IMG/VR virus record: IMGVR_UViG_3300025769_000069
Reading direction: 5' to 3' (one strand)
Length of the DNA stretch: 64,000 nucleotides
DNA from: a virus
The number at the start of each line of letters is the position of its first letter. Position 1 is the stretch's first letter. Position numbers and translations under genes: made by a program. Below the pieces are notes generated by a model that was not told the DNA's origin, made no database searches, and saw only the letters and a program-made list of their open reading frames with translations. Below, piece after piece: positions 59,635 through 59,863 of this stretch.

Positions 59635-59675
59635 TGACTTGGTTGTTGGTTTGATCGTAATGTTTGGAGGTTAAC

Positions 59676-59861
59676 ATGCAAGACTTGTCGGCGCAGATAT
59701 TGTTAAAGTGGGCATCGGCCCTGGAAGTGTTTGCACAACTCGGATCCAAACTGGTGTTGGTTACCCTCAGCTTTCCGCTGTTATTGAGTGCGCTGATGCT
59801 GCTCACGGTCTCGGTGGCCATATTATTGCGTTTTGTGGCCGCACTTGCCCTGGCGATGTAG
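59676..59861 (+). CDS. Hydrophobic 61-aa ORF overprinting the guaC fragment
   Basis: GGAGG 5 nt before ATG; ORF limits coincide with the fragment limits. Confidence 0.5.
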
Positions 59862-59863
59862 CG
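59690..59863 (+). pseudogene. guaC: Internal fragment of GMP reductase
   Basis: [47 protein letters not shown]...PGDVA; in-frame stop just upstream; DGG changed to FCG. Confidence 0.9.

Follow-up and report, generated by a model that had tools for sequence, protein, structure and literature searches.

The stretch of DNA analysed here (64,000 nucleotides, IMG/VR virus record IMGVR_UViG_3300025769_000069), referred to as the window throughout, belongs to a marine T4-like myovirus that is uncultured and has a GC content of about 37%. Its gene content includes a class II ribonucleotide reductase, a DnaB-type helicase, kdsA/kdsB and tRNAs. The helicase is 70% identical to its counterpart in Phage C48C1 and 63% identical to that of Methylophilales phage Melnitz; a close relative of the window's phage was not found among deposited phages.

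The features of the locus are collated in Table 1. The glycine-zipper gene and tRNA-Arg(tct) are the left and right anchors of a hypervariable slot, the spacer between them amounting to 297 nt in the window. Homologues of the glycine-zipper gene were located at 79 IMG/VR loci, and at about 60 of these a tRNA-Arg(tct) follows after a spacer of -1 to 1187 nt. This gene order is kept across a large group of uncultured T4-like phages. At least four unrelated types of small gene occupy the spacers of the relatives, and similarity to guaC was detected in the slot of none of those approximately 60.

Table 1. Features of the locus, with positions in the numbering of the window.
Feature	Position	Strand	Remarks
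Glycine-zipper protein gene	59155..59634	+	secreted protein, 159 aa; weak Pfam Gly-zipper matches, all below curated cut-offs
orfX remnant	59634..59654	+	ATG ACT TGG TTG TTG GTT TGA = MTWLLV, stop
GGAGG site, Shine-Dalgarno-like	59666..59670	+	5 nt before ATG 59676
ORF in the +1 frame	59676..59861	+	61 codons plus TAG (59859-59861); hydrophobic helical peptide
guaC-derived DNA patch	59689..59864	+	catalytic Cys loop to GDVA; PF00478; positions are alignment edges
Cluster of four substitutions	59831, 59832, 59834, 59840	+	GAT GGT GGC TGC to TTT TGT GGC CGC
orfY 3' remnant	59895..59941	+	last ~15 codons, stop inside first bases of tRNA-Arg
tRNA-Arg(tct)	59932..60008	+	found with ARAGORN and Rfam

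Two of the small genes found in relatives have left traces in the window. Intact orfX (65 codons, M[AT]WLLVF.TYWDGQIMTVGNG...) is present in L087, L090, L098 and L002/L125, where it starts at the same TAATG overlap, and intact orfY (79-80 codons) is present in L142 and L143, where its end occupies the same place with respect to tRNA-Arg. The orfX product (65 aa) has a hydrophobic N-terminus and a conserved ECFAEREKLS...GYFPPNMQAIC. Of orfX the window keeps six initial codons and then TGA, and of orfY approximately 15 terminal codons; with the 5' end of one and the 3' end of the other on its flanks, the guaC-derived piece therefore sits between two small-gene remnants. The GuaC frame continues in frame into the orfY tail, and guaC homology to the right of position 59864 is weak.

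A misassembly or chimera, a possibility that the original prediction had raised, was ruled out by an independent JGI metagenome contig (Ga0208899_1012889, L086), the sole match in one metagenome scan for the locus. This contig is 98.7% identical to the window over 3829 nt and shows 0 differences from position 59269 to 62323, a range covering both junctions of the fragment. Since the two are identical across both junctions, these are regarded as real.

The GC content of the fragment (approximately 172 nt) is 0.51-0.53, against about 0.37 nearby. Its GuaC frame, read at 59684-59860, matches PF00478 (IMPDH/GMP reductase) with an E value of 6e-18, in agreement with the earlier description of a GC-richer segment with a nearly perfect GuaC loop. 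The match spans only profile positions 165-228 of 345, and the patch covers about 59 of the approximately 375 guaC codons, far short of the full (beta/alpha)8 barrel of PF00478 enzymes (about 345-400 residues). The remaining parts of guaC were found nowhere else in the window. The frame is closed just upstream of the fragment by a TAA (59672-59674), and its first candidate start, a GTG at 59708, is without a ribosome site. The stop, the missing remainder of the enzyme and the alteration of DGG to FCG had all been predicted correctly.

The catalytic Cys loop (GSVCTTR, within 59711-59770) is intact. The DGG(C) motif after GGHIIA, invariant among the intact phage guaC genes that were aligned and inspected, reads FCGR in the fragment. 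The four clustered substitutions responsible for this (Table 1) amount to three replacements at invariant residues in the GuaC frame (D, G and C to F, C and R); in the +1 frame they turn RMVAA into RFVAA, that is, two silent changes and one exchange of M for F. Together with position 59740, the cluster comprises the sole bases of the window that are absent from approximately 90 intact genes compared. These four private changes, silent or conservative in +1 and radical in GuaC, are suggestive but not statistically significant. Exact-pattern scans of IMG/VR for the FCGR variant and the window-specific synonymous variants returned 0 matches. Because the fragment contains so few of the guaC codons, has no start and has its DGG motif destroyed, it is, as judged from its sequence, not a GMP reductase enzyme.

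The ORF in the +1 frame is present with all the elements attributed to it beforehand: the GGAGG site, the ATG, the TAG and 61 mostly hydrophobic residues. Its peptide has a GRAVY value of 1.57, and Kyte-Doolittle averages over 19-residue windows peak at 2.1-2.5 over residues 25-61. A generic single helix was predicted by AlphaFold2 (pLDDT 86); the hydrophobic helix is long enough to span a membrane, and the +1 frames of intact guaC genes look alike in this respect. A search of Pfam at E values of up to 1 gave no match of the peptide to a named family of small membrane proteins (phage holin etc.). Sites of the form GGAGG-N4-9-ATG occur 13 times in the window, and eight of the others precede ORFs of at least 45 codons that lie outside any longer ORF; the start context of the +1 ORF resembles that of the genuine gene starts of the window. 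A promoter/terminator scan of the locus revealed neither element as belonging to the +1 ORF itself.

For the origin of the ATG and its ribosome site, three alignments can be made, none of them decisive: to Met16 of orfX, to 'NMQA' of orfX, or to a guaC-internal AGGAGTTAA, from which the GGAGG site at 59666 may descend. Descent of the start from the original guaC start was rejected, intact genes beginning with an unrelated MRI(D/E).... The TAG of the ORF corresponds to the ancestral GAT GTA GCx (GDVA) of guaC. The original prediction that the ORF brackets the fragment is therefore accurate in its coordinates and misleading as a sign of new design, the stop having been inherited.

Relatives of the fragment are encoded on more than 587 IMG/VR viral contigs, and in all of those kept (80/80) the guaC gene is full-length. 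The closest intact core, that of L174, matches the window at all but 6 of 171 positions (97% nucleotide identity) and belongs to a genome with only distant kinship to the window's phage; the intact core of L044 is 94% identical to the fragment. Four loci (L072, L064, L057 and L025) contain intact guaC plus other genes in common with the window, and are for that reason taken to be related phages with an auxiliary guaC. A clade-specific RIQTGVGY...HIIADGGCTCPGDVA is common to all phage guaC relatives examined. The donor is evidently a phage-borne guaC of related marine T4-like phages and not a host gene; capture from a host was rejected on account of the phage-clade signature residues of the fragment and its 94-97% identity to cores on phage contigs. 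Phage GMP reductases are annotated in Xanthomonas phages XacN1 and Xoo-sp13 and in Caulobacter phage Cr30, and such a gene has been noted in a deep pelagimyophage ecotype (PMC7029224). The GuaC frame of the fragment belongs to the clade of these phage genes; unlike them, the window retains 59 of about 375 codons, with no start and no DGG motif.

Further genes were observed near intact guaC. In L064, whose contig is related to the window, a tmRNA gene (4711-5090, tag ANDNFAPSGFALAA) lies approximately 2.6 kb downstream of guaC. In L044, a 72-kb low-GC viral contig, homologues of IF3, Hsp20 and ClpS are located directly upstream of guaC (3455-6606) and form an unusual translation and proteostasis gene cluster.

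The intact genes also show what the +1 frame owes to its parent. Over the same 171 nt, the +1 frame is stop-free in 75 of 80 intact guaC genes, its GRAVY value being 1.37 +/- 0.44 in these genes and 1.70 in the window; in the closest intact genes it stops at the same TAG (GAT GTA GCx). Within intact guaC, the frame is under no constraint (pN/pS 3.0), in contrast to the strong constraint on the GuaC frame (pN/pS 0.03). Openness, hydrophobicity and stop are evidently by-products of guaC codon composition; as they are already present in intact guaC, they are not evidence of selection, and to this extent the claim that the piece was kept for features of its new frame is not upheld.

The window is not the only place in which the piece occurs on its own. 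A search with the 61-aa peptide yielded seven called small proteins (48-71 aa, 70-90% identity in the search and 65-88% in a comparison of the ORF with them). One of these, P0007 in L167, lies inside a broken but otherwise full-length guaC; the other six are encoded by a stand-alone guaC patch among unrelated phage genes on the same strand, with no further guaC. Two types of IMG/VR scan were performed, of which the first used patterns of the +1 peptide and the second a 29-nt DNA pattern blind to frame. Both gave the same 25 contigs, 21 with intact guaC and four with stand-alone copies (L180/L181/L199 and L198), so that the frame-blind scan of IMG/VR added no copy to those found through the peptide patterns. 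Besides the window, at least six stand-alone contexts are known (L168, L169/L198, L170, L171, L172/L173 and L180/L181/L199), three of which were recovered from two or three independent samples. As most copies were found via the +1 peptide, ascertainment favours open, conserved +1 frames.

The surroundings of the copies differ. The L168 copy, on an 11-kb contig related to the window's phage, lies 2 kb away from the tRNA region, inside a gene's 3' end; in L126 and L128 this gene directly abuts the next gene (overlapping TAATG), which represents the empty-site version. The copy of the L169 type (L169 and L198) sits between PTPS and FolE genes in L169, and that of L170 is tightly coupled to the genes on either side. 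The packing of the ORF in L170 and L168 resembles that of a genuine gene. The cassette junctions look like illegitimate or microhomology events.

All stand-alone copies end no more than 8 nt past the +1 stop, possess a ribosome site of the GGAG type and a start in the +1 frame, and have lost invariant residues from the GuaC frame. At the left, four copies end at a guaC-internal AGGAG (AGGAGTTAAT...ATG, codons T-E/Q-E-L-I-L-N-G); in the window, L180, L169 and L170 this internal part has been lost, and a different GGAG-type site with an ATG in the +1 frame takes its place. Stops are likewise absent from the GuaC frame and one antisense frame in all copies. The nearest intact gene differs from one copy to the next, a pattern suggestive of derivation or exchange on more than one occasion.

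The family of the +1 peptide comprises eight protein clusters in 5.8 billion proteins, and no relatives deeper than guaC-derived ORFs were found among 1.8 billion representatives; the deep search turned up nothing but +1 frames from broken or error-ridden guaC (L200, L225). In L167 (1-700) the catalytic Cys codon of an otherwise full-length-looking guaC reads TGA, and gene calling splits the gene into three ORFs; either an early stage of decay or a sequencing error may lie behind this.

The same patch was found inside intact genes. It is 93-100% identical in 13 distinct, otherwise diverged intact guaC genes (IMG/VR loci L044, L072, L057, L174-L178, L182-L184, L190 and L197). When L044 and L072 are compared, the flanks are 65.5% and the core 95.5% identical, and third-position identity in general rises from about 0.4-0.6 to 0.8-1.0 within approximately 59690 to 59863 (window-equivalent positions). 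The edges are sharp and match those of the fragment in the window. The high identity of the core and the low identity of the flanks lead to the conclusion that the patch was recently exchanged among divergent genes, and the pattern resembles that of a sweep by gene conversion or recombination in the recent past. In five patch-carrying intact backgrounds there is no +1 start; as the patch behaves as a unit even there, its edges may have a cause at the DNA level. Gene conversion from stand-alone copies would explain the common edges. An intact guaC and a stand-alone copy were not found in one record among the five intact-guaC records considered, which are 12-67% complete.

For the selection tests, substitutions were polarised against the nearest intact core, and variants found in patch-carrying intact genes were excluded. 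Neutral simulations were run with a matched mutation spectrum and the same filters, and only outcomes without a stop in the +1 frame were kept; the spectrum was matched because the first position of the GuaC frame is rich in G and most of the changes run from GC to AT. Of neutral runs with as many changes as observed, about 80% gained a +1 stop. The copy in L172 differs from its nearest intact gene by eight silent and no replacement changes in the +1 frame, and by no silent and eight replacement changes in the GuaC frame (8/8 silent in +1, P = 0.0008 by neutral simulation). Both derived changes of L171 are silent in +1 and replacements in GuaC, and those of L173 divide into seven silent and six replacement changes (mostly hydrophobic to hydrophobic) in +1, as compared with 13 replacements in GuaC. 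Between L172 and L173, pN/pS is 0.25 in the +1 frame and 4.9 in the GuaC frame. For L171-L173 together, 14 of 20 derived changes are silent in +1 (P = 0.006), all of them alter the GuaC frame, and hydropathy is preserved (P = 0.0002). With all 48 changes, P was 0.05 for silence in +1 and 0.004 for depletion at +1 second positions. The +1 sense frame is the best of the six frames, and the antisense frame sharing its third positions is second; coding in the latter was rejected, the substitutions (5 silent/3 replacement) fitting worse than the 8 silent/0 replacement of +1. Within the lineage L171-L173, selection has evidently moved away from the GuaC frame and now acts on the +1 frame.

The other copies gave a different result. 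Pooled over the window, L168, L170, L180 and L169, 8 of 28 changes are silent against 8.2 expected, which is no signal; as the remaining copies match expectation, selection is seen in one lineage, and that lineage was chosen post hoc. No constraint on +1 is seen in 5 of 8 stand-alone copies. The window copy alone, whose substitutions are too few to be informative, has a pN/pS of 0.73 in +1 and 0.70 in GuaC and shows no preservation of hydropathy (P = 0.61). Frame-specific tests, of the kind proposed beforehand as a check, accordingly indicate purifying selection on the +1 frame and relaxation on the GuaC frame in L171-L173 (P = 0.0008 to 0.006) and give no signal in the window, L168, L170, L180 and L169.

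The reading placed first is that the +1 ORF is an expressed and selected out-of-frame remodelled mini-gene belonging to a small, young family; the arguments for and against it are considered to be about evenly balanced. According to this reading, the guaC patch would have reached the slot by illegitimate recombination, at a site at which relatives carry intact small accessory genes and at which nothing but the end remnants of such genes is left here. With the GuaC frame dead from the loss of start, codons and DGGC, the +1 ORF would share a transcript with the upstream gene and the tRNA cluster, and its product would be a helical peptide that inserts into the membrane. The raw material, namely an open frame, a Leu/Val/Ala-rich translation and a stop codon, came from guaC, and what was gained is separation from guaC plus a start codon with its ribosome site. 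One might guess at a small membrane-active accessory protein of the kind used by phages for exclusion or lysis timing. Counted in favour of the mini-gene were the recurrence of the piece, its ORF-shaped edges in seven contexts, the replacement of ribosome sites and starts in the right frame, the gene-like packing, the filled and empty versions of the L168 site, the best fit of the +1 sense frame, the different nearest parents, the switch of selection in L171-L173 and, for the window copy, its four private changes and its start context; counted against it were the signal-free window copy, the post hoc choice of the one selected lineage, the tiny and shallow family, the inherited features, the peptide-led ascertainment, the lack of a promoter or terminator in the scan and the behaviour of the patch as a unit inside intact genes. 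The original prediction, that a piece of guaC was kept for its alternative-frame peptide, hence finds backing at the level of the family (at least six other contexts and the L171-L173 switch) and none for the window copy, which is neutral in every test.

The main rival, possible and yet more doubtful, is that the window copy is a young neutral relic, junk from illegitimate recombination with the guaC of a co-infecting phage in a recombination-prone slot. The +1 ORF would then be accidental, and the ribosome site and ATG would be leftovers of an overwritten small gene, as the ambiguous alignment of the ATG region to orfX would allow. The slot itself is of the required kind, being hypervariable in spacer length (-1 to 1187 nt), occupied by different small genes in relatives and, in the window, a mosaic of two gene remnants and the guaC piece. 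The window copy has only six differences from the closest core, with nothing to indicate retention, its open frame, stop and hydrophobicity come from guaC, and five of the eight stand-alone copies are without +1 constraint; the recombination relic that had been offered from the outset as an alternative is thus still live. Random edges would be expected of such relics, however, yet in seven contexts the right ends agree to within 8 nt and the ORF is preserved whole, complete with ribosome site and start. The frame switch in L171-L173 argues against neutrality, as does the gene-like packing of the ORF in L170 and L168, T4-like genomes being tightly packed. A pure pseudogene relic with a chance ORF was downgraded by the recurrent stand-alone copies and by the selection in L171-L173.

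It is improbable that the 172-nt patch is in essence a DNA-level element, i.e., a self-spreading or recombination-defined module with an incidental ORF, such as a donor/acceptor of guaC gene conversion or the footprint of nuclease-driven homing at the guaC core. What speaks for such an element is the distribution of the patch: 93-100% identity and sharp edges in 13 diverged intact genes, third positions at 0.8-1.0 over a background of 0.4-0.5, five patch-carrying backgrounds without a +1 start, the unconstrained +1 frame of intact genes (pN/pS 3.0) and the occurrence of the closest core in L174, an only distantly related genome. At the edges, on the other hand, no nuclease gene, intron, intein, terminal repeat or target duplication was seen, no record holding both an intact gene and a stand-alone copy was found among those considered (completeness 12-67%), and the new +1 ribosome sites and starts and the substitutions silent in +1 would be left unexplained.

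That the piece acts on guaC mRNA as an RNA decoy or antisense regulator, or yields a truncated but functional peptide in the GuaC frame, is very improbable indeed: the GuaC frame and one antisense frame are stop-free in all copies and the former is continuous with the orfY tail in the window, but the GuaC frame is without a start or ribosome site and has lost invariant residues in every copy, the antisense fit (5 silent/3 replacement) is worse than the 8/0 of +1, the fragment lies in sense with its neighbours (all neighbouring genes are on the + strand), and no Rfam family was matched at the locus, which leaves the decoy suggested by the original prediction without support.

An extension of the mini-gene reading is that the patch is a self-propagating mini-gene, the stand-alone copies of which encode the membrane peptide and, by way of the highly active recombination of T4-like phages, also serve as conversion donors that overwrite the guaC catalytic core of co-infecting or host-sharing phages. 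The common patch of the 13 diverged intact genes, with edges equal to those of the cassette, would thereby be accounted for. This extension is regarded as unlikely, if slightly less so than the DNA-level element. If it were true, a gene born by a frame shift would now be driving the evolution of its own parent gene.

Among described systems, the closest kind is that of the out-of-frame remodelled genes (ORgenes), including those with out-of-frame lateral transfer, which were described in E. coli by a network-based survey (Watson, Lopez and Bapteste 2021, PMC8788219). As in ORgenes, a new ORF here comes from the alternative frame of part of a gene, moved and joined to foreign start sequences, and the alternative-frame part is short. 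Unlike them, the present case concerns uncultured marine T4-like phages and an auxiliary metabolic gene as the parent, with the same piece in at least seven contexts with matching edges and one lineage with a switch of constraint. The next closest kind is classical viral overprinting (Sabath, Wagner and Karlin 2012, PMC3494269; review PMC8227390). The likeness lies in a protein, predicted in the present case, that arises de novo in the +1 frame of a pre-existing gene and owes its composition to the parent frame. Genes overprinted in the classical manner continue to overlap a parent that is functional, whereas the copies described here have a dead parent frame; the +1 frame is unconstrained inside intact guaC (pN/pS 3.0), and any constraint arises only after release. 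The present case differs further from both known kinds in that the patch also sweeps through intact parent genes.

Small genes in the hyperplastic regions of T4-type phages are reportedly shuffled as modules (PeSL cassettes), as Arbiol et al. are said to have described in 2010. The slot from the glycine-zipper gene to tRNA-Arg is similar in that gene-sized modules are gained, lost or replaced between conserved anchors; it is dissimilar in that no promoter-stem-loop repeats are found beside the guaC cassette.

The birth of viral genes from alternative frames is well accepted, and such genes are usually caught long after the event. Here, public metagenomes hold the parent guaC, putative early stages (e.g., L167) and several freshly released copies together, which makes the steps of out-of-frame gene birth testable, from an open hydrophobic frame through release and acquisition of a ribosome site to the onset of selection. 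Two cautions for annotators follow: a perfect active-site fragment in a phage is no evidence of the enzyme, and a neat ORF over such a fragment does not in itself constitute evidence of a gene.

A separate observation was made in the neighbouring tRNA cluster. Between tRNA-Arg and tRNA-Ser of the window (60009-60140) lies a conserved, structured RNA-like element of approximately 130 nt, which is also present in L002 (6732-6860) and L168 (about 2000-2110). No Rfam family was matched by the element. The tRNA cluster of T4 contains the species 1 and 2 RNAs, and the element may likewise be a small, stable RNA belonging to the tRNA cluster. It has a strong terminal GC hairpin followed by a U run, and six of its predicted pairs show compensatory changes.
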